Source of the DNA: Escherichia coli
Lineage (GTDB): Bacteria > Pseudomonadota > Gammaproteobacteria > Enterobacterales > Enterobacteriaceae
DNA length: 64,000 nt
NCBI RefSeq assembly: GCF_016903815.1
Contig: NZ_CP069973.1
Direction: 5' to 3' (one strand)
This document shows positions 2,490 through 60,692 of this stretch, piece by piece (positions within the stretch are counted from its first letter, which is position 1; each line of letters opens with the position of its first letter). The notes below the pieces were generated by a model. The model worked only from the letters and a program-made list of their open reading frames with translations. It was not told where the DNA came from and did no database searches. Position numbers and translations under genes: made by a program.

Positions 2490-2587
2490 CCTGATGCGCT
2501 ACGCTTATCAGGCCTACATCGCTCCTGCAATGTGTTGATTTTGCAAGATTTTGTAGGTCGGATAAGGCGTTCACGCCACATCTGGCA
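2490..2587. repeat. REP/BIME-type palindromic repeats downstream of opgH
   Basis: gcctgatgcgctacgcttatcaggcctac and gtaggtcggataaggcgttcacgcc motifs typical of enterobacterial REP elements. Confidence 0.7.
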
Positions 2588-11682: not shown

Positions 11683-11733
11683 TAATCTCTATGCTCCGGC
11701 TGAAGGGATGTTTTTGCCGGACACAAAGGATAA

Positions 11734-16826: not shown

Positions 16827-18449
<1,623 letters not shown>

Positions 18450-18488
18450 CAATGCATTCCGGCCTGCAGTGCAGGCCGGAGATAATCT

Positions 18489-18905
18489 TCAGATCGAAAT
18501 CTTTTTACCGCCGCGATGGGTTGTTGAGGTCTGACCGTTCGCTCCATATAGCGTCGGTTCCTGATGCGGTTTCAACATTTCCAGCGCCTGTTGATTGCGC
18601 TCAATCTGTCCTTCCAGTAACCAGCCGTTATGTTGATTCATTTGGCGTAGTTGCTGCGTTTTCACAGTAATTTCCTGCCAGCGTTGACTAATATCAACGC
18701 TATTTGCTGCATTGGGTTCTTTCCTGCGTAACTGTTCGAGGTAATCCAGCGTCGCCAGCAGAGAGCTTTTTTGTTCTGTAATCCATTGCAACTGACTGCC
18801 GTTGATCTGCCCCATAGAGAGATGTTGCTGCTCTTGATCCATTACCGTTTTGAGATCGTTAAGCACAGCGGACATCTGGTCGAGGATCTCTGCAAGACGC
18901 GTCAT
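18489..18905 (-). CDS. flgN: Flagellar export chaperone FlgN
   Basis: 138-aa protein matching FlgN; co-oriented directly downstream of flgM. Confidence 0.92.
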   Translation of the reverse strand: MTRLAEILDQMSAVLNDLKTVMDQEQQHLSMGQINGSQLQWITEQKSSLLATLDYLEQLRRKEPNAANSVDISQRWQEITVKTQQLRQMNQHNGWLLEGQIERNQQALEMLKPHQEPTLYGANGQTSTTHRGGKKISI

Positions 18906-18909
18906 ACGA

Positions 18910-19203
18910 TCAGTTACTCTGCAAGTCTTGCTGCGCTTCGTTGATCAGCGCATCGGCAATTTTGCCGGTGTCCATTTTTAGTTCACCGTTACGAATCGCC
19001 AGTTTTAACGCTTCGACACGTTCAAGATTGATATCACTGCTGCCGGGTTGCATCAGTTTTGCTTGCGCGTCGCTTAACGTCACACTGGTGCTGGTGGAGG
19101 CGGTTGTTTTTGCCGCCCGGGTGTTCGTTACCGGCGCGTCAGTGGTTTCGCGCGGTTGAACGGTGCTTACGGGCTTCAGAGGCGAAGTGCGATCAATACT
19201 CAT
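18910..19203 (-). CDS. flgM: Anti-sigma-28 factor FlgM
   Basis: 97-aa protein [25 protein letters not shown]... Confidence 0.93.
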
Positions 19204-19246
19204 TGTTTATTCCTCATTGAGGGCGCTTTTATCATGTGTTGCTTAT

Positions 19247-19273
19247 TTATCGGCAAGGGACGGGTAATCTTTA
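19247..19273 (-). promoter_or_regulatory. Sigma-28 (FliA) class 3 promoter of flgMN
   Basis: Minus strand reads TAAAGATT-N11-GCCGATAA, against consensus TAAAGTTT-N11-GCCGATAA, just downstream of the flgA stop. Confidence 0.8.
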
Positions 19274-19278
19274 ACAGC

Positions 19279-19938
19279 TTACAGGTTTATAAGAATATTC
19301 CCATCTGCATCAACAACGCCGCTGACCACCTGTCCCGATACCATGCGCACCCGCGCATTCTGTGCGACGGCAGCATTGTTCAGCGCCTGACCTTCTGCGT
19401 TGGCGCTAAACCCATCACCGCTGGCGATCACGTTGACGCGTTGTCCCGCTTTTACCCGCCATGCCTGGCGAAACTGGGTTAACTGGATAGGTTGATCGGG
19501 TGATAGATCGCGCAGGCTAACGGCATCAACAAGTTGATTGATATCCAGCACCGTACGCGGTGGCAAGGTGTCCAGCCGTCCGCGTTTCAGTTTGACATTG
19601 CCAGCTTCCAGCTTTCCTCCCCGCACAATGGGCATTGCGGCAACCACATAATTTCCTGTGGCCTGCACATTAACCTGTAAATATCGTTTGTCGTTACCGC
19701 AGCGTGCCAACACATTCACATTGCCCCACAGGCGGGAATTATTGCTCATCGAAAGCAATGGCTGCTCGCACGGCGGTAGTAGATTGGGCGCTGTACGAAT
19801 AGAAACACGAACCTCATCACTTACCCCCGCGAGCTGGGCGCTAAAAAAGGTGTGCAATTGCGATGTGAGATTGCTCGCCGCACTTAACGGACTGAACAGT
19901 ATCGCGATGATTGCCACGCTACGTTTTATTGCCAGCAT
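19279..19938 (-). CDS. flgA: Flagellar P-ring assembly chaperone FlgA
   Basis: 219-aa protein with signal peptide, matching FlgA. Confidence 0.93.
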   Translation of the reverse strand: MLAIKRSVAIIAILFSPLSAASNLTSQLHTFFSAQLAGVSDEVRVSIRTAPNLLPPCEQPLLSMSNNSRLWGNVNVLARCGNDKRYLQVNVQATGNYVVAAMPIVRGGKLEAGNVKLKRGRLDTLPPRTVLDINQLVDAVSLRDLSPDQPIQLTQFRQAWRVKAGQRVNVIASGDGFSANAEGQALNNAAVAQNARVRMVSGQVVSGVVDADGNILINL

Positions 19939-20092
19939 TTTCGCCCCCTGCCATTTCTACAACGTGAATTGTACCTGTCCGCAATGACCATCAACGGCAT
20001 AAATAGCGACCCATTTTGCGTTTATTCCGCCGATAACGCGCGCGTAAAGGCATTTAAGCTGATGGCAGAATTTTGATACCTGCGGAGGAGAT
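19939..20092. promoter_or_regulatory. Divergent flgA / flgB class 2 (FlhDC-dependent) promoter region
   Basis: 154-bp divergent intergenic region between flgA and flgB; individual FlhD4C2 sites not resolved by eye. Confidence 0.5.
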
Positions 20093-20509
20093 ATGCTCGA
20101 TAAGCTCGACGCCGCCTTACGTTTTCAACAAGAGGCGCTCAATCTGCGCGCCCAGCGTCAGGAAGTGCTGGCAGCAAACATCGCCAATGCCGATACCCCT
20201 GGTTATCAGGCGCGCGATATCGATTTTGCCAGTGAACTTAAAAAAGTCATGCAACGTGGACGGGATGCAACAAGCGTGGTTGCACTGACGATGACCTCAA
20301 CGCAACACATTCCGGCGCAGGCGCTGACGCCTCCTACCGCAGAACTGCAATACCGTATTCCGGACCAGCCTTCGCTTGACGGTAATACCGTCGATATGGA
20401 TCGCGAACGTACCCAGTTTGCCGATAACAGCCTGCAATACCAGATGAGCCTTAGCGCGTTGAGCGGGCAAATCAAAGGCATGATGAACGTTTTACAGAGC
20501 GGAAATTAA
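20093..20509 (+). CDS. flgB: Flagellar basal-body rod protein FlgB
   Basis: 138-aa protein matching FlgB. Confidence 0.95.
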
Positions 20510-20512
20510 CGG

Positions 20513-20917
20513 ATGGCACTGCTGAATATTTTTGATATCGCCGGGTCGGCGTTAACTGCCCAGTCCCAGCGCCTGAACGTGGCGGCCAGTAATCTGGCGA
20601 ATGCTGATAGCGTGACCGGTCCCGATGGACAGCCATATCGGGCAAAACAGGTGGTATTTCAGGTTAACGCTGCACCAGGTGCTGCGACAGGCGGCGTAAA
20701 GGTTGCCGATGTTATAGAAAGTCAGGCCCCGGACAAACTGGTTTATGAACCGGGTAATCCGCTGGCGGATGCAAAGGGCTACGTGAAAATGCCAAACGTT
20801 GATGTCGTCGGGGAGATGGTTAACACCATGTCGGCGTCACGCAGCTATCAGGCCAATGTTGAAGTGCTCAACACGGTGAAAAGCATGATGCTGAAAACCC
20901 TTACGCTCGGTCAATAA
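20513..20917 (+). CDS. flgC: Flagellar basal-body rod protein FlgC
   Basis: 134-aa protein matching FlgC. Confidence 0.95.
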
Positions 20918-20928
20918 AGGAGAAAGCT

Positions 20929-21624
20929 ATGTCCATTGCGGTAACCACCACCGATCCGACAAATACCGGCGTCAGCACCACCAGTAGTAGTTCGCTCACG
21001 GGCAGCAACGCCGCAGATTTACAAAGCAGTTTTCTGACTTTGTTGGTGGCGCAGCTGAAAAACCAGGACCCGACCAATCCAATGGAAAACAACGAGCTGA
21101 CGTCGCAATTGGCTCAAATCAGCACGGTCAGCGGGATTGAAAAACTCAATACCACGCTCGGATCTATTTCCGGACAGATTGATAACAGCCAGTCGTTACA
21201 GGCCAGTAACCTGATCGGTCACGGCGTGATGATCCCCGGCACCACTGTTCTTGCGGGAACCGGTAGTGAAGAAGGGGCTGTGACCACGACCACGCCGTTT
21301 GGTGTTGAGCTGCAACAGGCGGCAGACAAAGTTACGGCCACCATCACCGATAAAAACGGTGCGGTTGTCCGTACCATTGATATCGGTGAACTGACTGCCG
21401 GAGTCCACAGTTTCACCTGGGACGGTACGTTGACTGACGGCAGCACTGCGCCGAACGGTTCTTACAATGTAGCGATTAGCGCCAGTAACGGTGGTACACA
21501 ACTGGTTGCCCAGCCGCTGCAGTTTGCTCTGGTGCAGGGTGTGATCCGCGGCAACAACGGTAATACGCTGGATCTCGGCACTTACGGCACCACCACCCTC
21601 GACGAAGTACGGCAGATAATTTAA
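20929..21624 (+). CDS. flgD: Flagellar hook capping protein FlgD
   Basis: 231-aa protein matching FlgD. Confidence 0.95.
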   Translation: MSIAVTTTDPTNTGVSTTSSSSLTGSNAADLQSSFLTLLVAQLKNQDPTNPMENNELTSQLAQISTVSGIEKLNTTLGSISGQIDNSQSLQASNLIGHGVMIPGTTVLAGTGSEEGAVTTTTPFGVELQQAADKVTATITDKNGAVVRTIDIGELTAGVHSFTWDGTLTDGSTAPNGSYNVAISASNGGTQLVAQPLQFALVQGVIRGNNGNTLDLGTYGTTTLDEVRQII

Positions 21625-21648
21625 GCCTTCACATTTCAGGAGTCAGTC

Positions 21649-22854
21649 ATGGCCTTTTCTCAAGCGGTTAGCGGATTAAACGCTGCCGCCACCAACCTCG
21701 ATGTTATTGGCAACAATATCGCCAACTCCGCCACCTACGGCTTTAAATCAGGCACGGCCTCTTTTGCCGATATGTTTGCCGGTTCGAAAGTGGGACTGGG
21801 GGTAAAAGTTGCCGGTATCACCCAGGACTTTACCGATGGCACGACCACCAACACCGGGCGTGGTCTGGACGTTGCTATCAGCCAGAACGGTTTTTTCCGT
21901 CTGGTGGACAGCAACGGTTCGGTGTTCTACAGCCGTAACGGACAATTTAAGCTGGATGAAAACCGTAACCTGGTGAATATGCAAGGTTTACAGTTGACGG
22001 GTTACCCGGCAACCGGTACGCCGCCGACTATTCAGCAAGGGGCGAATCCGACCAATATTTCGATTCCGAATACCCTGATGGCAGCGAAAACTACCACCAC
22101 GGCGTCGATGCAGATCAACCTGAATTCCAGTGATCCGCTTCCCTCTGTTAACGCATTTGATGCCAGCAATGCGGATAGCTATAACAAAAAAGGTTCGGTG
22201 ACTGTTTTCGATAGTCAGGGTAATGCTCATGACATGAGCGTCTACTTTGTGAAGACCGGGGATAATAACTGGCAGGTCTACACCCAGGATAGTAGTGATC
22301 CAAACAGCATTGCGAAGACAGCGACAACACTGGTGTTTAATGCCAATGGCGTTCTGACCTCAGATCCAACAGCGAATATTTCCACTGGCGCAATTAACGG
22401 CGCAGTTCCCGCCACGTTTAGCCTGAGCTTCCTCAACTCCATGCAGCAAAATACCGGCGCTAACAACATTGTGGCAACCACCCAGAACGGCTACAAACCG
22501 GGCGATCTGGTGAGCTATCAAATCAATGATGACGGTACGGTTGTCGGCAACTATTCCAACGAACAAACCCAACTGCTGGGGCAGATTGTACTGGCGAACT
22601 TTGCCAACAACGAAGGTCTGGCATCCGAAGGCGACAACGTCTGGTCTGCGACGCAATCTTCTGGCGTGGCGCTGTTGGGGACAGCCGGGACGGGCAACTT
22701 TGGCACCCTGACCAACGGTGCGCTGGAAGCGTCCAACGTCGATCTCAGTAAAGAACTGGTCAATATGATCGTTGCCCAGCGTAACTATCAGTCTAACGCC
22801 CAGACCATCAAAACCCAGGACCAGATCCTCAACACGCTGGTTAACTTACGCTAA
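21649..22854 (+). CDS. flgE: Flagellar hook protein FlgE
   Basis: 401-aa protein with conserved rod/hook N- and C-terminal segments. Confidence 0.95.
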   Translation: MAFSQAVSGLNAAATNLDVIGNNIANSATYGFKSGTASFADMFAGSKVGLGVKVAGITQDFTDGTTTNTGRGLDVAISQNGFFRLVDSNGSVFYSRNGQFKLDENRNLVNMQGLQLTGYPATGTPPTIQQGANPTNISIPNTLMAAKTTTTASMQINLNSSDPLPSVNAFDASNADSYNKKGSVTVFDSQGNAHDMSVYFVKTGDNNWQVYTQDSSDPNSIAKTATTLVFNANGVLTSDPTANISTGAINGAVPATFSLSFLNSMQQNTGANNIVATTQNGYKPGDLVSYQINDDGTVVGNYSNEQTQLLGQIVLANFANNEGLASEGDNVWSATQSSGVALLGTAGTGNFGTLTNGALEASNVDLSKELVNMIVAQRNYQSNAQTIKTQDQILNTLVNLR

Positions 22855-22873
22855 TCGCTGACGGGATAGCTCA

Positions 22874-23629
22874 ATGGATCACGCAATTTATACCGCGATG
22901 GGAGCAGCCAGCCAGACGCTGAATCAACAGGCGGTAACTGCCAGTAATCTGGCCAATGCCTCAACGCCCGGTTTTCGCGCGCAGTTAAACGCCTTGCGCG
23001 CAGTGCCGGTGGAAGGGCTTTCACTGCCCACGCGCACGCTGGTAACGGCGTCAACGCCGGGTGCAGACATGACGCCCGGCAAGATGGATTACACCTCGCG
23101 CCCGCTGGACGTTGCGTTGCAGCAGGATGGCTGGCTGGCCGTGCAGACCGCTGACGGTAGCGAAGGGTATACGCGTAATGGCAGCATTCAGGTTGATCCC
23201 ACCGGGCAACTGACAATTCAGGGACATCCGGTGATAGGCGAGGCTGGGCCAATTGCTGTGCCGGAAGGGGCGGAAATCACTATTGCTGCCGACGGCACAA
23301 TCTCGGCGCTGAATCCGGGCGATCCGGCAAATACGGTTGCGCCAGTGGGGCGTCTGAAACTGGTGAAAGCCACGGGCAGCGAAGTCCAGCGCGGTGACGA
23401 CGGCATTTTTCGTTTAAGCGCAGAAAGCCAGACCACGCGTGGGCCGGTACTGCAGGCAGATCCAACCTTGCGTGTGATGTCGGGGGTTCTGGAGGGCAGT
23501 AACGTCAATGCCGTTGCGGCAATGAGCGACATGATTGCCAGCGCGCGGCGTTTTGAAATGCAGATGAAGGTGATCAGCAGCGTCGATGATAACGCAGGCC
23601 GTGCCAACCAACTGCTGTCGATGAGTTAA
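22874..23629 (+). CDS. flgF: Flagellar basal-body rod protein FlgF
   Basis: 251-aa protein matching FlgF. Confidence 0.95.
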   Translation: MDHAIYTAMGAASQTLNQQAVTASNLANASTPGFRAQLNALRAVPVEGLSLPTRTLVTASTPGADMTPGKMDYTSRPLDVALQQDGWLAVQTADGSEGYTRNGSIQVDPTGQLTIQGHPVIGEAGPIAVPEGAEITIAADGTISALNPGDPANTVAPVGRLKLVKATGSEVQRGDDGIFRLSAESQTTRGPVLQADPTLRVMSGVLEGSNVNAVAAMSDMIASARRFEMQMKVISSVDDNAGRANQLLSMS

Positions 23630-23747
23630 TTAAACGATTGATGACATTGCAATAAAAGCGCGCGGACTATTCTCTCGCCCATTTTGGGAGAGGTTAGGGT
23701 GAGGGGAAATGCGCACCGTCGCGTGCTTCTGCTCTGCTTGTCACTAA

Positions 23748-24548
<801 letters not shown>

Positions 24549-24600
24549 GGCATAACCGGTGGCAGATTCACCGGTTTACTGATTTTTGAAGATGATAGCC

Positions 24601-25299
24601 ATGCAAAAAAACGCTGCGCATACTTATGCCATTTCCAGCTTGTTGGTGCTTTCACTAACCGGCTGCGCCTGGATACCCTCCACGCCGCTGGTACAGGGGG
24701 CGACCAGTGCACAACCGGTTCCCGGTCCGACGCCCGTCGCCAACGGTTCTATTTTCCAGTCTGCTCAGCCGATTAACTATGGCTATCAACCGTTGTTTGA
24801 AGATCGTCGACCACGCAATATTGGCGATACGCTGACCATCGTGTTGCAGGAGAACGTCAGCGCCAGCAAAAGCTCCTCTGCGAATGCCAGCCGTGACGGT
24901 AAAACTAATTTTGGCTTTGATACTGTGCCGCGCTATTTGCAGGGGCTGTTTGGTAACGCTCGTGCCGATGTCGAAGCCTCCGGTGGTAACACGTTCAACG
25001 GAAAGGGCGGGGCCAATGCCAGCAATACCTTTAGCGGCACGTTGACGGTGACGGTTGACCAGGTACTGGTCAACGGCAACCTGCATGTGGTGGGTGAAAA
25101 ACAGATCGCCATTAATCAGGGTACCGAATTTATTCGCTTCTCTGGTGTAGTTAATCCTCGCACCATCAGCGGCAGCAATACCGTACCGTCTACTCAGGTG
25201 GCGGATGCGCGCATTGAATACGTAGGCAATGGCTACATTAACGAAGCGCAAAATATGGGCTGGTTGCAGCGTTTCTTCCTCAACCTGTCACCAATGTAA
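24601..25299 (+). CDS. flgH: Flagellar L-ring lipoprotein FlgH
   Basis: 232-aa protein from [22 protein letters not shown] (lipobox); start trimmed from the ORF-track start. Confidence 0.93.
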
Positions 25300-25310
25300 G
25301 TGAGGCTGTG

Positions 25311-26408
25311 GTGATTAAATTTCTCTCTGCATTAATTCTTTTACTGGTTACCACGGCGGCTCAGGCTGAGCGTATTCGCGATCTCACCAGTGTTCAGGGG
25401 GTAAGGCAAAACTCACTGATTGGCTATGGCCTGGTGGTGGGGCTTGATGGTACAGGTGACCAGACAACTCAGACGCCGTTTACCACACAAACGCTTAATA
25501 ACATGCTCTCACAGCTGGGAATTACCGTTCCGACGGGCACTAATATGCAGCTAAAAAACGTCGCTGCGGTTATGGTGACAGCGTCACTTCCACCGTTTGG
25601 ACGTCAGGGGCAAACCATTGACGTGGTGGTTTCTTCCATGGGAAATGCCAAAAGTCTGCGTGGCGGTACGTTATTGATGACACCGCTTAAGGGCGTTGAC
25701 AGTCAGGTGTATGCGCTGGCGCAGGGCAATATTCTGGTTGGCGGCGCAGGGGCCTCCGCTGGCGGTAGCAGTGTTCAGGTGAACCAACTGAACGGTGGAC
25801 GGATCACCAATGGTGCGGTTATTGAACGTGAATTGCCCAGCCAGTTTGGCGTCGGGAATACCCTTAATTTGCAACTTAACGACGAAGATTTCAGTATGGC
25901 GCAGCAAATCGCTGACACCATCAACCGTGTGCGTGGATATGGCAGCGCCACCGCGTTAGATGCGCGGACTATTCAGGTGCGCGTACCGAGTGGCAACAGT
26001 TCCCAGGTCCGTTTCCTTGCCGATATCCAGAATATGCAGGTTAATGTCACCCCGCAGGACGCTAAAGTAGTGATTAACTCGCGCACTGGTTCGGTGGTGA
26101 TGAATCGCGAAGTGACCCTCGACAGCTGCGCGGTAGCGCAGGGGAATCTCTCAGTAACAGTTAATCGTCAGGCCAATGTCAGCCAGCCAGATACACCGTT
26201 TGGTGGTGGGCAGACTGTGGTTACTCCACAAACGCAGATCGATTTACGCCAGAGCGGCGGTTCGCTGCAAAGCGTACGTTCCAGCGCCAGCCTCAATAAC
26301 GTGGTGCGTGCGCTCAATGCGCTGGGCGCTACGCCGATGGATCTGATGTCCATACTGCAATCAATGCAAAGTGCGGGATGTCTGCGGGCAAAACTGGAAA
26401 TCATCTGA
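25311..26408 (+). CDS. flgI: Flagellar P-ring protein FlgI
   Basis: 365-aa protein from a GTG start ([19 protein letters not shown] signal peptide). Confidence 0.93.
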
Positions 26409-27349
26409 TGATCAGCGACAGCAAACTACTGGCAAGTGCGGCCTGGGATGCACAATCGCTCAACGAACTTAAGGCGAAAACGGGCGAAGATCCGGCGGCA
26501 AATATCCGTCCGGTGGCCCTCCAGGTGGAAGGGATGTTCGTGCAGATGATGTTGAAAAGCATGCGCGACGCTTTACCAAAAGATGGCCTGTTCAGCAGCG
26601 AGCACACTCGCCTGTATACCAGTATGTATGACCAGCAGATTGCCCAACAGATGACGGCGGGCAAAGGTCTGGGGCTGGCAGAGATGATGGTTAAACAGAT
26701 GACGCCAGAACAACCATTGCCAGAGGAGTCCACGCCAGCAGCACCGATGAAATTCCCGCTCGAAACCGTGGTGCGTTATCAAAATCAGACGCTTTCGCAG
26801 CTGGTGCAAAAGGCCGTACCACGTAACTACGATGATTCGCTGCCGGGTGACAGTAAAGCATTCCTCGCGCAACTCTCGCTGCCAGCCCAACTGGCAAGCC
26901 AGCAAAGTGGTGTGCCACATCATTTGATCCTCGCTCAGGCGGCGCTGGAATCTGGCTGGGGACAACGGCAAATCCGCCGTGAAAACGGCGAGCCGAGCTA
27001 TAACCTGTTTGGCGTCAAAGCCTCTGGCAACTGGAAAGGGCCAGTCACTGAAATCACCACGACTGAATATGAAAATGGCGAAGCGAAGAAAGTAAAAGCG
27101 AAGTTTCGGGTCTACAGCTCGTATCTGGAAGCATTGTCGGATTACGTTGGGCTGTTAACGCGTAACCCGCGCTACGCCGCCGTGACGACCGCCGCGAGTG
27201 CGGAGCAGGGGGCGCAGGCCCTACAGGACGCGGGCTATGCCACCGATCCTCACTATGCCCGCAAACTCACCAACATGATTCAGCAGATGAAATCGATAAG
27301 CGACAAGGTGAGCAAAACCTACAGCATGAACATTGATAATCTGTTCTGA
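26408..27349 (+). CDS. flgJ: Flagellar rod-assembly protein / muramidase FlgJ
   Basis: 313-aa protein from [16 protein letters not shown]...; its ATG overlaps the flgI stop (ATGA). Confidence 0.93.
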   Translation: MISDSKLLASAAWDAQSLNELKAKTGEDPAANIRPVALQVEGMFVQMMLKSMRDALPKDGLFSSEHTRLYTSMYDQQIAQQMTAGKGLGLAEMMVKQMTPEQPLPEESTPAAPMKFPLETVVRYQNQTLSQLVQKAVPRNYDDSLPGDSKAFLAQLSLPAQLASQQSGVPHHLILAQAALESGWGQRQIRRENGEPSYNLFGVKASGNWKGPVTEITTTEYENGEAKKVKAKFRVYSSYLEALSDYVGLLTRNPRYAAVTTAASAEQGAQALQDAGYATDPHYARKLTNMIQQMKSISDKVSKTYSMNIDNLF

Positions 27350-27354
27350 ATAAC

Positions 27355-27381
27355 TCAAGTCCGGCGGGTCGCTGCCGATAA
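27355..27381 (+). promoter_or_regulatory. Candidate sigma-28 class 3 promoter of flgKL
   Basis: Perfect -10 GCCGATAA at 27374..27381, with a weaker -35 (TCAAGTCC) 11 bp upstream. Confidence 0.6.
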
Positions 27382-27414: not shown

Positions 27415-29058
27415 ATGTCCAGCTTGATCAATAACGCCATGAGCGGACTGAACGCGGCCCAGGCGGCGTTAAATACGGCAAGTAATAATATCTCCAGCTA
27501 TAACGTTGCCGGATATACCCGCCAAACCACTATTATGGCGCAGGCCAATAGCACGTTGGGCGCTGGCGGCTGGGTTGGCAATGGCGTCTACGTTTCTGGT
27601 GTGCAGCGTGAGTATGATGCGTTTATTACCAACCAGTTACGTGCGGCGCAGACGCAAAGTAGCGGCCTGACTGCCCGCTATGAGCAGATGTCGAAAATCG
27701 ACAATATGCTCTCCACCAGTACCTCTTCGCTGGCAACACAGATGCAGGATTTCTTCACCAGCCTGCAAACGCTGGTGAGTAACGCGGAAGATCCGGCAGC
27801 GCGCCAGGCGCTGATTGGGAAATCAGAAGGGTTGGTGAATCAGTTTAAAACCACCGATCAATATCTGCGCGACCAGGACAAACAGGTCAATATCGCGATA
27901 GGTGCCAGTGTTGATCAGATCAACAATTACGCTAAACAAATCGCCAGCCTGAACGATCAAATCTCCCGCCTGACAGGCGTGGGGGCAGGGGCATCACCTA
28001 ACAATCTGCTGGATCAACGCGATCAACTGGTGAGCGAATTAAACCAGATTGTTGGCGTAGAAGTCAGCGTTCAGGATGGTGGCACTTATAACATCACGAT
28101 GGCCAATGGCTACTCACTGGTTCAGGGAAGTACGGCGCGGCAACTTGCGGCAGTTCCTTCCAGCGCCGACCCTTCTCGTACGACTGTCGCTTATGTTGAT
28201 GGGACGACAGGCAATATTGAGATCCCGGAGAAATTACTGAATACCGGGTCGCTGGGCGGCATTCTGACATTCCGTTCTCAGGATCTTGACCAGACGCGTA
28301 ATACGCTTGGACAACTGGCGCTGGCATTTGCCGAGGCTTTCAACACCCAACACAAAGCCGGATTTGATGCTAACGGCGATGCCGGTGAAGATTTCTTTGC
28401 TATCGGTAAGCCCGCGGTTCTGCAAAACACGAAAAACAAAGGTGACGTTGCGATCGGTGCCACGGTAACTGATGCCTCAGCGGTACTGGCGACAGATTAC
28501 AAAATCTCGTTCGATAATAATCAGTGGCAGGTCACCCGCCTTGCCAGCAATACCACTTTTACGGTGACGCCGGATGCCAACGGTAAAGTGGCATTTGATG
28601 GTCTGGAGTTGACGTTTACAGGAACGCCTGCCGTTAACGACAGCTTCACGCTGAAACCGGTAAGTGACGCCATCGTCAACATGGATGTATTAATCACCGA
28701 CGAAGCGAAAATCGCCATGGCGAGCGCAGAAGATGCGGGTGATAGCGACAACCGCAACGGTCAGGCCCTGCTCGATCTGCAAAGCAACAGTAAAACGGTG
28801 GGCGGTGCGAAATCCTTTAACGACGCTTATGCCTCGTTAGTGAGTGATATCGGTAATAAAACCGCGACGTTGAAAACCAGTAGCACCACTCAAGGTAATG
28901 TGGTGACGCAGCTTTCCAATCAGCAGCAGTCGATTTCCGGTGTCAATCTCGATGAGGAGTACGGAAATCTGCAACGTTTTCAGCAGTATTACCTCGCGAA
29001 TGCGCAGGTTCTGCAGACGGCAAACGCGATTTTTGATGCGCTGATTAACATTCGCTAA
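27415..29058 (+). CDS. flgK: Flagellar hook-associated protein 1 FlgK
   Basis: 547-aa protein matching FlgK. Confidence 0.95.
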   Translation: MSSLINNAMSGLNAAQAALNTASNNISSYNVAGYTRQTTIMAQANSTLGAGGWVGNGVYVSGVQREYDAFITNQLRAAQTQSSGLTARYEQMSKIDNMLSTSTSSLATQMQDFFTSLQTLVSNAEDPAARQALIGKSEGLVNQFKTTDQYLRDQDKQVNIAIGASVDQINNYAKQIASLNDQISRLTGVGAGASPNNLLDQRDQLVSELNQIVGVEVSVQDGGTYNITMANGYSLVQGSTARQLAAVPSSADPSRTTVAYVDGTTGNIEIPEKLLNTGSLGGILTFRSQDLDQTRNTLGQLALAFAEAFNTQHKAGFDANGDAGEDFFAIGKPAVLQNTKNKGDVAIGATVTDASAVLATDYKISFDNNQWQVTRLASNTTFTVTPDANGKVAFDGLELTFTGTPAVNDSFTLKPVSDAIVNMDVLITDEAKIAMASAEDAGDSDNRNGQALLDLQSNSKTVGGAKSFNDAYASLVSDIGNKTATLKTSSTTQGNVVTQLSNQQQSISGVNLDEEYGNLQRFQQYYLANAQVLQTANAIFDALINIR

Positions 29059-29069
29059 GGGGAGATAAA

Positions 29070-30023
29070 ATGCGTTTCAGTACCCAGATGATGTACCAGC
29101 AAAACATGCGCGGCATCACCAATTCTCAGGCAGAATGGATGAAGTACGGCGAACAGATGTCGACGGGTAAGCGAGTCGTTAACCCTTCAGATGATCCCAT
29201 TGCTGCATCACAAGCTGTTGTTCTCTCCCAGGCACAGGCGCAAAACAGCCAGTACACGCTGGCGCGTACTTTCGCCACTCAAAAAGTGTCACTGGAAGAG
29301 AGTGTACTTAGCCAGGTCACCACCGCTATCCAGAATGCTCAGGAAAAAATTGTCTACGCCAGCAATGGCACCTTGAGTGACGATGACCGTGCCTCGCTGG
29401 CTACGGATATTCAGGGGCTTCGTGACCAGTTGCTGAATCTGGCGAACACCACTGACGGTAACGGGCGCTACATTTTTGCCGGTTATAAAACAGAAACTGC
29501 GCCGTTTAGTGAGGCGGATGGCAAATACGAAGGCGGAGCAGAAAGTATTAAACAACAGGTCGATGCTTCGCGTTCGATGGTGATAGGGCACACGGGTGAC
29601 AAAATTTTCGACAGTATTACCAGCAACGCGGTAGCGGAACCAGACGGTAGCGCTTCTGAAACCAATCTTTTTGCCATGCTGGATAGCGCCATCGCAGCCC
29701 TAAAAACGCCGGTCGCGGATAGCGAAGCGGATAAAGAAACCGCCGCTGCGGCACTGGATAAAACCAACCGCGGACTGAAAAACTCGCTGAACAATGTGCT
29801 GACTGTTCGCGCGGAATTAGGCACGCAGCTGAACGAACTGGAGTCGCTGGATTCATTAGGTAGCGATCGCGCTTTAGGGCAAACGCAGCAGATGAGCGAT
29901 CTGGTTGATGTGGACTGGAATGCAACTATTTCATCTTACATCATGCAGCAAACGGCATTGCAGGCATCGTATAAAGCATTTACCGATATGCAGGGATTGT
30001 CGCTGTTCCAGCTCAACAAATAA
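29070..30023 (+). CDS. flgL: Flagellar hook-associated protein 3 FlgL
   Basis: 317-aa protein matching FlgL. Confidence 0.95.
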   Translation: MRFSTQMMYQQNMRGITNSQAEWMKYGEQMSTGKRVVNPSDDPIAASQAVVLSQAQAQNSQYTLARTFATQKVSLEESVLSQVTTAIQNAQEKIVYASNGTLSDDDRASLATDIQGLRDQLLNLANTTDGNGRYIFAGYKTETAPFSEADGKYEGGAESIKQQVDASRSMVIGHTGDKIFDSITSNAVAEPDGSASETNLFAMLDSAIAALKTPVADSEADKETAAAALDKTNRGLKNSLNNVLTVRAELGTQLNELESLDSLGSDRALGQTQQMSDLVDVDWNATISSYIMQQTALQASYKAFTDMQGLSLFQLNK

Positions 30024-30117
30024 GCTCGCTTTAAAACATATCATGAAACTGGGTATGTTTTCTCTGCCTGCTCTGGGATCGCCGGGGCGGGCATTTTTTT
30101 GCATGAGACATAACGAA

Positions 30118-30902
<785 letters not shown>

Positions 30903-34220: not shown

Positions 34221-34581
34221 CGTAACTTACTCATTATTCTTACATTGACGACTAAGCTGCGGGCAAAGTAACGCCTTTCCGGGTGTGAACCGATGGCCTC
34301 GTGTCTAGTCGCGTCGCCAACCTCACGGTTATCGTCAGCTCAAAGAGGCGCAGAGTGTCGGTTGCCCGTTTTTCATGCGGAAAAACAGCGCAATTATCAA
34401 AGAAACAGACTGGGTATTACTCTCCAGAAATATTTCCATCTACCGGTAAGGACTGCAACCCGCAGCCCGCTAACTGCCTGAAAGATCAATACGTCTTACG
34501 CCATTGCTGCGTGGATGATCGGTCGGGCAAAATGGGTTATTCCGTAAAATTTCTTGTTTTAACAAGGATGGACACGGAAAC
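34221..34581 (-). promoter_or_regulatory. rne 5' untranslated leader (autoregulatory)
   Basis: Long untranslated region upstream of the rne ATG; its extent (about 360 nt) is taken from established E. coli knowledge, not measured here. Confidence 0.55.
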
Positions 34582-35863: not shown

Positions 35864-36448
35864 CTATCCCATCAGCGGGTTTTTCCCTTCCCGACGTAAC
35901 ATCTGACACAGCGCGATTAGCGGTAAACCAACCAGCGTGTTAGGATCACGCCCCTCTAAACGCTCAAACAGCGTAATGCCAAATCCTTCACTCTTAAAGC
36001 TACCCGCGCAGTGCAGGGGATGCTCTTTACGCACGTAATTATCAATCTCCGCCTCGCTCAGGTGACGGAAATGGACGTCAAAAGGCTCCACTTCTGTTTG
36101 TAGATGCCCATTCGCCGAATTAAACAACGCCAGTCCAGTATAGAAGGTGACGATATTGCCGCTGGCTTTGCGTAATTGCAGACGGGCATTTTCTTCCGTT
36201 AACGGTTTACCGGTGATTTCGCCATCAAGAACACATACCTGGTCTGAACCAATAATTAAATGATCCGGATAACGTGACGCCAGAGATTGCGCTTTTTCTT
36301 GTGCCAGTCGAAGCACCAACTGTCGCGGTGATTCGTCGCTGCGTGGGGTTTCGTCGACCTCTGGTGCTGCACATTCAAAAGAGATTTGCAGTTTTTCCAG
36401 AAGAGCGCGACGCCAGGGCGAGGTGGAGGCTAAAATAAGTTTAGGCAT
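35864..36448 (-). CDS. yceF: Maf-like nucleotide pyrophosphatase YceF
   Basis: 194-aa protein from [20 protein letters not shown]... Confidence 0.9.
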
Positions 36449-36634
36449 ATTTTTTTCCATCAGATATAGCGTATTGATGATAGCCATTTTAAACTATGCG
36501 CTTCGTTTTGCAGGTTGATGTTCGTTATCAGCACTGAACGAAAATAAAGCAGTAACCCGCAATGTGTGCGAATTATTGGCAAAAGGCAACCACAGGCTGC
36601 CTTTTTCTTTGACTCTATGACGTTACAAAGTTAA

Positions 36635-43081: not shown

Positions 43082-43794
43082 TTGTGCACAGAAAACCCCC
43101 AGCTAGGCTGGGGGTTCCGGAAAGCTTTCAGCTTTAAGCCAGTTATTAAAACCCCTTTTGATTTGTTAAAACACCTTGCGGTCTGGCAACTGCAAGTGTC
43201 AAACAAGAAATCAAAAGGGGGTCCCAATGGGGAACGAAAAGAGCTTAGCGCACACCCGATGGAACTGTAAATATCACATAGTTTTTGCGCCAAAATACCG
43301 AAGACAGGTGTTCTACAGAGAGAAGCGTAGAGCAATAGGCAGTATTTTGAGAAAGCTGTGTGAGTGGAAAAGTGTACGGATTCTGGAAGCTGAATGCTGT
43401 GCAGATCATATCCATATGCTTGTGGAGATCCCGCCCAAAATGAGCGTATCCGGCTTTATGGGATATCTGAAAGGGAAAAGCAGTCTGATGCTTTACGAGC
43501 AGTTTGGTGATTTGAAATTCAAATACAGGAACAGGGAGTTCTGGTGCAGAGGGTACTACGTCGATACGGTGGGTAAGAACACGGCGAAGATACAGGATTA
43601 CATAAAGCACCAGCTTGAAGAGGATAAAATGGGAGAGCAGTTATCGATTCCCTATCCGGGCAGCCCGTTTACGGGCCGTAAGTAACGAAGTTGGATGCAA
43701 ATGTCAGATCGTGTGCGCCTGTTAGGGCGCGGCTGGTAAGAGAGCCTTATAGGCGCATTTGAAAAACCTCCGGCTATGCCGGAGGATATTTATT
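43082..43794 (+). mobile_element. IS200 (IS200/IS605 family) insertion sequence, copy 1
   Basis: About 713 bp that is apparently identical to 59980..60692 (ORF-track translations identical on both strands); encodes an HuH Y1 transposase; left-end hairpin cccccag-ctagg-ctggggg (43096..43114) and right-end hairpin cctccggc-tat-gccggagg; boundaries set by where the two copies diverge, plus or minus a few bp. Confidence 0.9.
43227..43685 (+). CDS. tnpA: IS200 transposase TnpA (HuH Y1 family)
   Basis: 152-aa protein MGNEKSLAHTRWNCKYHIVFAPKYRR...ADHIHMLVEIP...; HxH motif and Tyr-containing C-terminal region; closely matches Salmonella IS200 TnpA from memory. Confidence 0.9.
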   Translation: MGNEKSLAHTRWNCKYHIVFAPKYRRQVFYREKRRAIGSILRKLCEWKSVRILEAECCADHIHMLVEIPPKMSVSGFMGYLKGKSSLMLYEQFGDLKFKYRNREFWCRGYYVDTVGKNTAKIQDYIKHQLEEDKMGEQLSIPYPGSPFTGRK

Positions 43795-43863: not shown

Positions 43864-44673
43864 ATGTTCTTAATTAACGGTCATAAGCAGGAATCGCTGG
43901 CAGTAAGCGATCGGGCAACGCAGTTTGGTGATGGTTGTTTTACCACCGCCAGAGTTATCGACGGTAAAGTCAGTTTGTTATCGGCGCATATCCAGCGACT
44001 ACAGGATGCTTGTCAGCGGTTGATGATTTCCTGTGACTTCTGGCCTCAGCTTGAACTAGAGATGAAAACGCTGGCAGCAGAACAGCAAAATGGTGTGCTG
44101 AAAGTGGTGATCAGTCGCGGTAGTGGCGGGCGAGGATACAGCACATTGAACAGCGGACCGGCAACGCGGATTCTCTCCGTTACGGTTTATCCCGCACATT
44201 ACGACCGTTTGCGTAACGAGGGGATGACGTTGGCGCTAAGCCCGGTGCGGCTGGGGCGCAATCCTCATCTTGCAGGTATTAAACATCTTAATCGGCTTGA
44301 GCAAGTATTGATCCGCTCTCATCTTGAGCAGACAAACGCTGATGAGGCGCTGGTCCTTGACAGCGAAGGGTGGGTTACGGAATGCTGTGCGGCTAATTTG
44401 TTCTGGCGGAAGGGCAACGTAGTTTATACGCCGCGACTGGATCAGGCAGGTGTTAACGGCATTATGCGACAATTCTGTATCCGTTTACTGGCACAATCCT
44501 CTTATCAGCTTGTCGAAGTGCAAGCCTCGCTGGAGGAGGCGTTGCAGGCAGATGAGATGGTTATTTGTAATGCGTTAATGCCAGTGATACCCGTACGTGC
44601 CTGTGGCGATGTCTCCTTTTCGTCAGCAACGTTATATGAATATTTAGCCCCACTTTGTGAGCGCCCGAATTAG
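43864..44673 (+). CDS. pabC: Aminodeoxychorismate lyase PabC
   Basis: 269-aa protein matching PabC. Confidence 0.93.
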
Positions 44674-47330: not shown

Positions 47331-47340
47331 GAGAGACATC

Positions 47341-53843: not shown

Positions 53844-55684
<1,841 letters not shown>

Positions 55685-59979: not shown

Positions 59980-60692
59980 TTGTGCACAGAAAACCCCCAG
60001 CTAGGCTGGGGGTTCCGGAAAGCTTTCAGCTTTAAGCCAGTTATTAAAACCCCTTTTGATTTGTTAAAACACCTTGCGGTCTGGCAACTGCAAGTGTCAA
60101 ACAAGAAATCAAAAGGGGGTCCCAATGGGGAACGAAAAGAGCTTAGCGCACACCCGATGGAACTGTAAATATCACATAGTTTTTGCGCCAAAATACCGAA
60201 GACAGGTGTTCTACAGAGAGAAGCGTAGAGCAATAGGCAGTATTTTGAGAAAGCTGTGTGAGTGGAAAAGTGTACGGATTCTGGAAGCTGAATGCTGTGC
60301 AGATCATATCCATATGCTTGTGGAGATCCCGCCCAAAATGAGCGTATCCGGCTTTATGGGATATCTGAAAGGGAAAAGCAGTCTGATGCTTTACGAGCAG
60401 TTTGGTGATTTGAAATTCAAATACAGGAACAGGGAGTTCTGGTGCAGAGGGTACTACGTCGATACGGTGGGTAAGAACACGGCGAAGATACAGGATTACA
60501 TAAAGCACCAGCTTGAAGAGGATAAAATGGGAGAGCAGTTATCGATTCCCTATCCGGGCAGCCCGTTTACGGGCCGTAAGTAACGAAGTTGGATGCAAAT
60601 GTCAGATCGTGTGCGCCTGTTAGGGCGCGGCTGGTAAGAGAGCCTTATAGGCGCATTTGAAAAACCTCCGGCTATGCCGGAGGATATTTATT
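59980..60692 (+). mobile_element. IS200 (IS200/IS605 family) insertion sequence, copy 2
   Basis: Apparently identical to copy 1, offset 16,898 bp, same orientation; left end abuts the bhsA terminator T-tract and right end lies 12 bp from the ldtC stop. Confidence 0.9.
60125..60583 (+). CDS. tnpA: IS200 transposase TnpA (HuH Y1 family), copy 2
   Basis: Protein identical to the copy 1 TnpA. Confidence 0.9.
   Translation: MGNEKSLAHTRWNCKYHIVFAPKYRRQVFYREKRRAIGSILRKLCEWKSVRILEAECCADHIHMLVEIPPKMSVSGFMGYLKGKSSLMLYEQFGDLKFKYRNREFWCRGYYVDTVGKNTAKIQDYIKHQLEEDKMGEQLSIPYPGSPFTGRK

Follow-up and report, generated by a model that had tools for sequence, protein, structure and literature searches.

The flagellar genes around the flgA-flgM spacer

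The window, by which is meant the whole 64-kb stretch of Escherichia coli DNA analysed, has as its counterpart 1180112-1244111 of NZ_CP023820.1, from E. coli strain 7/2, and the two differ only by the base at position 47336. Gene identities were taken from the RefSeq annotation of NZ_CP023820.1 together with the list of open reading frames (ORFs). The genes and elements on which the analysis bears are as follows.

18489..18905, minus strand: flgN, export chaperone, co-transcribed with flgM (ORF list, RefSeq annotation)
18910..19203, minus strand: flgM, anti-sigma-28 factor (ORF list, RefSeq annotation)
19204..19239, minus strand: class 3 flgM leader, 36 nt, with the Shine-Dalgarno sequence GAGGA at 19215..19211
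19239, minus strand: probable start (A) of the flgM transcript, 8 nt past the -10 element (from a construct description)
19247..19254, minus strand: flgM promoter -10 element, GCCGATAA (strand reading, pattern match, matrix score)
19266..19273, minus strand: flgM promoter -35 element, TAAAGATT (strand reading, pattern match, matrix score)
19279..19938, minus strand: flgA, first gene of the class 2 flgAMN operon (strand reading, ORF list, RefSeq annotation)
19939..20092, no strand assigned: divergent flgA/flgB class 2 control region, the source of read-through into flgMN (FlhDC peak by coordinate conversion)
20093-27349, plus strand: flgBCDEFGHIJ (ORF list, RefSeq annotation)
27355..27381, plus strand: flgKL class 3 promoter, TCAAGTCC-N11-GCCGATAA (pattern, matrix, identity to the K-12 ChIP-seq site, SELEX, conservation)
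27415-29058, plus strand: flgK, hook-filament junction protein (ORF list, RefSeq annotation)
29070-30023, plus strand: flgL, hook-filament junction protein (ORF list, RefSeq annotation)

The flgA stop codon (TAA, 19281..19279, minus strand) and the flgM ATG (19203..19201, minus strand) are separated by a spacer of 75 nt, in which the promoter motif lies on the coding strand and in the correct orientation for flgM; 5 nt separate the flgA stop from the -35 element and 43 nt separate the end of the promoter from the flgM ATG.

Between flgL and rne lies a toxin-antitoxin-like pair of GNAT-family acetyltransferase and DUF1778 genes (30118-30902, minus strand) which is absent from K-12 MG1655, about 890 bp being present here against about 65 nt of spacer in K-12. 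This insert begins directly after the terminator of FlgO, a flgL 3'UTR sRNA annotated in MG1655; FlgO is itself retained at 30023-30102 (plus strand) with four substitutions, and its terminator hairpin and T-run are intact. Two copies of IS200C are also present (43094-43685 and 59992-60583, plus strand; tnpA at 43227-43685 and 60125-60583), each preceded by an identical Rfam STnc490 match of 146 bits. Further Rfam matches at the gathering threshold are rne5, the RNase E 5'UTR (34245-34581, minus strand), the SraB sRNA (36442-36610, plus strand), the PyrC leader (11683-11732, minus strand) and the ES036 sRNA (2510-2552, minus strand).

The flgM promoter and its conservation

Read on the minus strand, the two elements of the flgM promoter, TAAAGATT and GCCGATAA, are joined by the 11-nt spacer ACCCGTCCCTT, and in a pattern search the site differs from the consensus TAAAGTTT-N11-GCCGATAA at a single position. 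With up to three mismatches allowed, the search returned three sites in the whole window against 0.55 expected: those of flgM and flgK and one within flgD.

The window was then scored with a weight matrix of 28 columns, built from 23 FliA ChIP-seq motifs with FAT (fold above threshold) >4 (Fitzgerald et al. 2014, PMC4183435); the flgMN and flgKL sites were excluded from the training set, so that circularity was avoided. The flgM site has the highest score of the window, 27.4 bits, some 9 bits above the runner-up at 18.1, and is second after tar (28.3 bits) among all 52 published K-12 FliA sites. This score was attained in none of 60 Markov-1 random windows, the best of which reached 19.1 bits, and at none of 4 million random positions. 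Judged from the sequence alone, the flgM motif is therefore decisive. The original prediction had put a sigma-28 motif at 19247..19273 on the minus strand, between the flgA stop at 19279 and flgM. Its coordinates and letters are exact when that strand is read, the place assigned to it is borne out, and the matrix scan for FliA promoters that was proposed with it as a check puts this site at the top of the window.

Within E. coli, a 1.7-kb query around the promoter found matches in 5,425 of 5,426 complete genomes, several of them at 100%. Identity of at least 99% over the 71 nt spanning the promoter is seen in 5,080 of 5,415 genomes, and over the surrounding 1.7 kb in only 680 of 5,425. Strain AST85, the most divergent among the matches listed in a spread sample, carries three differences, all of them outside both elements.

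Conservation beyond the species was followed by scanning species-representative genomes with the back-translated FlgM peptide MDTGKIAD, which gave at least 120 Enterobacterales loci; the species sampled are thus only those that keep this peptide, and a simple peptide pattern served to place the FlgM starts. For 105 loci this start could be retrieved together with the 160 nt before it, ten being left out for want of a recognisable FlgM start and five because they were too short. These sequences were scored with the matrix trained on E. coli sites only, against a cut-off of 10.6 bits, the 99th percentile of control stretches of 160 nt taken from these loci. Among the matches listed, a FliA motif is present upstream of flgM in 103 of 105 species, with a median score of 22.5 bits. 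The -35 core TAAAG is 100% conserved in these 103 species, and the -10 region TGCCGATA is nearly so (T 96, G 100, C 91, C 100, G 100, A 100, T 100 and A 92%, over the 103 sites among the matches listed). The 11 spacer positions of the same sites are just 34-59% conserved, as against 91-100% in GCCGATA. This is a classic phylogenetic footprint, and a strong one.

An upstream ORF could be recognised in 96 loci among the matches listed, and in 72 of these the -35 element starts 4-6 nt past its stop. Between the -10 element and the flgM ATG there are, again among the matches listed, 43 nt in both E. coli and E. albertii, some 60 nt in the majority of Enterobacteriaceae and as many as about 120 nt in Yersinia. 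Of the 105 loci among the matches listed, a FliA motif is missing only from one of Rahnella inusitata (L029) and from a second locus (L105), the 160 nt before the presumed flgM start giving best scores of 1.1 and 6.9 bits, respectively; the start may have been wrongly assigned, the gene may be a paralogue, or the motif may truly have been lost.

The position of the transcription start follows from a published construct. A flgM fusion comprising nucleotides +1 to 105 ends after codon 23 (Romilly et al. 2020, PMC7549644), which implies a leader of 36 nt; the +1 would accordingly lie at 19239, a position that derives from this construct description and not from start mapping. RNA folding of the leader and early coding region revealed no structure beyond that of shuffled controls (z = 0.41), and on this ground a role for leader structure in flgM was set aside.

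The flgK promoter and other sigma-28-like matches

The flgK site has a similar setting. The flgJ stop (27349) is 5 nt before it and the flgK ATG (27415) is 33 nt after its end. It carries three mismatches to the consensus, every one of them in the -35 element (TCAAGTCC), and at 16.1 bits it ranks only fifth in the window. About 0.16 sites of such a score are expected per window, and about 5e-5 within the 65-nt spacer on the correct strand. It had been put forward as a candidate preceding flgK, with a perfect -10 element. The GCCGATAA within 27355..27381 is confirmed, and the caution in that wording was apt given the score. With nine exact copies of GCCGATAA in the window, a perfect -10 element by itself is weak evidence, and going by score the flgK site is indistinguishable from other matches there. 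Its identity as the known flgKL class 3 promoter is supported instead by position, conservation, ChIP-seq and SELEX. Of the 18 loci reaching far enough, 17 carry a TCAAGT...GCCGATAA-like site of 14-24 bits (among the matches listed), and the C at the second position of the -35 element is kept in all 17. At both the flgM and flgK sites there is a bipartite motif at the orientation and distance of a sigma-28 promoter, with the elements kept and the spacer drifting.

Three matches to the FliA matrix score above the flgK promoter, at 17.7-18.1 bits: 54591-54618 (plus strand), at the end of thiK and 40 nt before nagZ; 44452-44479 (minus strand), antisense in pabC; and 21327-21354 (plus strand), inside flgD. 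All three are absent from the 52 published K-12 ChIP-seq peaks, and as FliA promoters they were set aside as non-functional or unproven. The flgK case is thus a caution: it is a real promoter, yet its score cannot separate it from non-functional matches.

One exact GCCGATAA is found at 20029-20036 (plus strand), 56 nt before the ATG of flgB and within the class 2 flgA/flgB control region. It was rejected as a FliA promoter, as it scores 10.9 bits and lacks a -35 element, that position reading CCCATTTT; in K-12, flgB expression in ΔflhD is not rescued by FliA overexpression (PMC4183435). The flgF-flgG spacer (23630-23765) is 136 nt long here compared with 171 nt in K-12, where a weak RpoF SELEX peak of intensity 6.7 has been reported (Shimada et al. 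2017, PMC5493296). The FliA matrix finds no site in the spacer of the window, the best score being -0.5 bits.

Expression of flgMN from two promoters and comparison with known systems

Published experiments in K-12 bear directly on these sites, because the letters of the window are those of the K-12 ChIP-seq 28-mers at both flgM and flgK. FliA ChIP-seq gave FAT 48 for the flgMN site (TAAAGATTACCCGTCCCTTGCCGATAAA) and FAT 47 for the flgKL site (TCAAGTCCGGCGGGTCGCTGCCGATAAT) (Fitzgerald et al. 2014, PMC4183435 Table 2), and genomic SELEX with the RpoF holoenzyme gave peaks of intensity 15.0 in the flgA-flgM spacer and 27.2 in the flgJ-flgK spacer (PMC5493296). Expression of flgM is lost in ΔflhD, and when fliA is overexpressed in that background flgM and flgK are both expressed at wild-type levels or above (PMC4183435). 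An arrangement of promoters P1 and P2, with P2 being sigma-28-dependent and upstream of flgM, is also stated in a review. Each element of the original interpretation is supported in that it matches published experiments on identical sequence. We are all but certain that 19273..19247 (minus strand, 27 bp) is the FliA (sigma-28) class 3 promoter of flgMN, nested at the end of the class 2 flgAMN operon. This promoter of flgMN is known and has been mapped experimentally in K-12, and in that respect it is nothing new.

The other source of flgMN transcripts would be the flgA promoter. FlhD/FlhC ChIP-seq in K-12 found a peak for flgAMN/flgBCDEFGHIJ (FAT 13/16; PMC4183435 Table 1) which, by our own coordinate conversion using the K-12 annotation, should fall in the flgA-flgB spacer at 19939..20092. 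A terminator scan of 18300..20200 found no minus-strand site, hence none between flgA and flgM, and because no terminator separates these genes, class 2 read-through into flgMN is plausible; such read-through has also been described in published work. The authors of the ChIP-seq study likewise regard overlapping flgAMN and flgMN operons as supported by their data, and detected by RT-PCR a transcript across the flgJ-flgK boundary (PMC4183435). The proposal that flgMN can be fed both by read-through from flgA and by its own class 3 promoter is therefore supported. That this promoter is "strong" is true of its motif, at 27.4 bits, and does not extend to a dominant share of flgM mRNA: flgMN RNA in K-12 was 451 in the wild type and 318 in ΔfliA, a difference that is not significant (PMC4183435). 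Because this drop is not significant, a strong motif should not be equated with the dominant source of flgM mRNA, and the class 3 promoter may add little in K-12 under the published conditions, where class 2 read-through would be the dominant source. The strain analysed here presumably behaves like K-12.

Taken further, this would mean that FliA-RNA polymerase binds the flgM site but adds negligibly in the wild type, with almost all flgMN mRNA coming from class 2 read-through. The expression values above are in its favour, as is the authors' report that the FliA-dependent share of dual-regulated transcripts was small under their conditions (PMC4183435). However, restoration of flgM by fliA overexpression in ΔflhD means that the promoter is productive, the near-invariant elements in 103 species among the matches listed argue for selection on function, and, as far as the summary given in PMC4183435 goes, Wozniak et al. 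connect swarming and the repair of flagella with the class 3 promoters that dual operons carry. We therefore consider a negligible contribution improbable.

A promoter of another kind is less probable still. Were flgM transcribed from a sigma-70 promoter located between flgA and flgM, the sigma-28-like sequence being incidental, a minus-strand sigma-70-like site would be looked for, and a scan of 18300..20200 found none; the sole sigma-70-like match close to this spacer, at 19271..19299, lies on the plus strand and points away from flgM. No point in support of such a promoter was found, and the loss of flgM expression in ΔflhD with its restoration by FliA alone (PMC4183435) also speaks against it, so that we hold it to be very unlikely. 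The least credible reading, to which we attach hardly any weight, is that the flgM motif matches by chance and has no promoter function. That such matches occur is seen from the three window sites of 17.7-18.1 bits without ChIP-seq peaks and from the nine exact copies of GCCGATAA, but the score at flgM was never met in random sequence, the orientation is correct within a spacer of 75 nt, and the site is conserved across Enterobacterales. Binding of FliA to the identical sequence in vivo by ChIP-seq (PMC4183435) and in vitro by SELEX (PMC5493296) already refutes a chance match.

With the site taken as the class 3 promoter of flgMN, the established flagellar hierarchy, as summarised in PMC4183435 and in a review, gives the following sequence of events. 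Early in assembly, FlhDC and sigma-70 RNA polymerase initiate at the flgA promoter and, flgA having no terminator, read through into flgM and flgN, supplying FlgM before the hook-basal body is complete. On its completion FlgM is secreted, and the freed sigma-28 RNA polymerase binds TAAAGATT/GCCGATAA and would begin at roughly 19239, some 8 nt past the -10 element, giving a flgMN transcript with a short leader. Since FlgM inhibits sigma-28, transcription of flgMN by sigma-28 forms a negative feedback loop. The class 3 transcript also provides FlgN, which acts as chaperone to FlgK and FlgL, and flgK parallels flgM, its own class 3 promoter lying right after the flgJ stop within a class 2 read-through unit. 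Through this negative feedback, in which sigma-28 drives its own inhibitor as well as the chaperone, late flagellar gene expression is coupled to assembly. The feedback between FlgM and sigma-28 has stood in textbooks since the 1990s, and all that the present analysis adds to it is a footprint quantified across species.

It is conceivable, though we think it doubtful, that the stop-adjacent -35 element of flgM and the non-consensus TCAAGT of flgK reflect a functional interplay between class 2 and class 3 transcription, in which initiation from the class 3 promoter would be blocked or modulated by class 2 read-through or by terminating ribosomes, and the weakness of the -35 element of flgK would be deliberate. 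Alternatively, the fixed geometry of -35 element and stop codon could be the result of simple spacer compaction.

In K-12 the flgMN promoter is the same 28-mer, identically placed between flgA and flgM. The 111 nt of this region are identical to those of MG1655 except for one base outside the promoter, the one before the flgM ATG (window position 19204), which is A here and C in MG1655. The K-12 flgKL promoter is likewise the same 28-mer between flgJ and flgK, in the same nested class 2/class 3 layout, and no difference was seen within the promoter. Among other sigma-28 promoters of K-12, those of tar, tsr, fliC and motA are class-3-only and share the consensus of the flgM site, the score of which falls between that of tar and those of flxA and yhjH (25.2 bits each). 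Expression of tar, tsr, fliC and motA is near zero in ΔfliA, whereas that of flgMN is not (PMC4183435); flgMN differs because class 2 read-through also feeds it.

The promoter also has a counterpart in Salmonella. In Salmonella enterica subsp. arizonae the -35 element TAAAGATT again lies a few nt past the flgA stop and is followed by an 11-nt spacer, but the spacer sequence is unrelated, the -10 element is GCCGATGA and the leader is 16 nt longer than here. The class 3 promoter of S. enterica flgM was reportedly first described by Gillen and Hughes in 1993. Dual class 2 and class 3 transcription of flgM is shared between S. enterica and the arrangement described here, as summarised in PMC4183435 and in a review.
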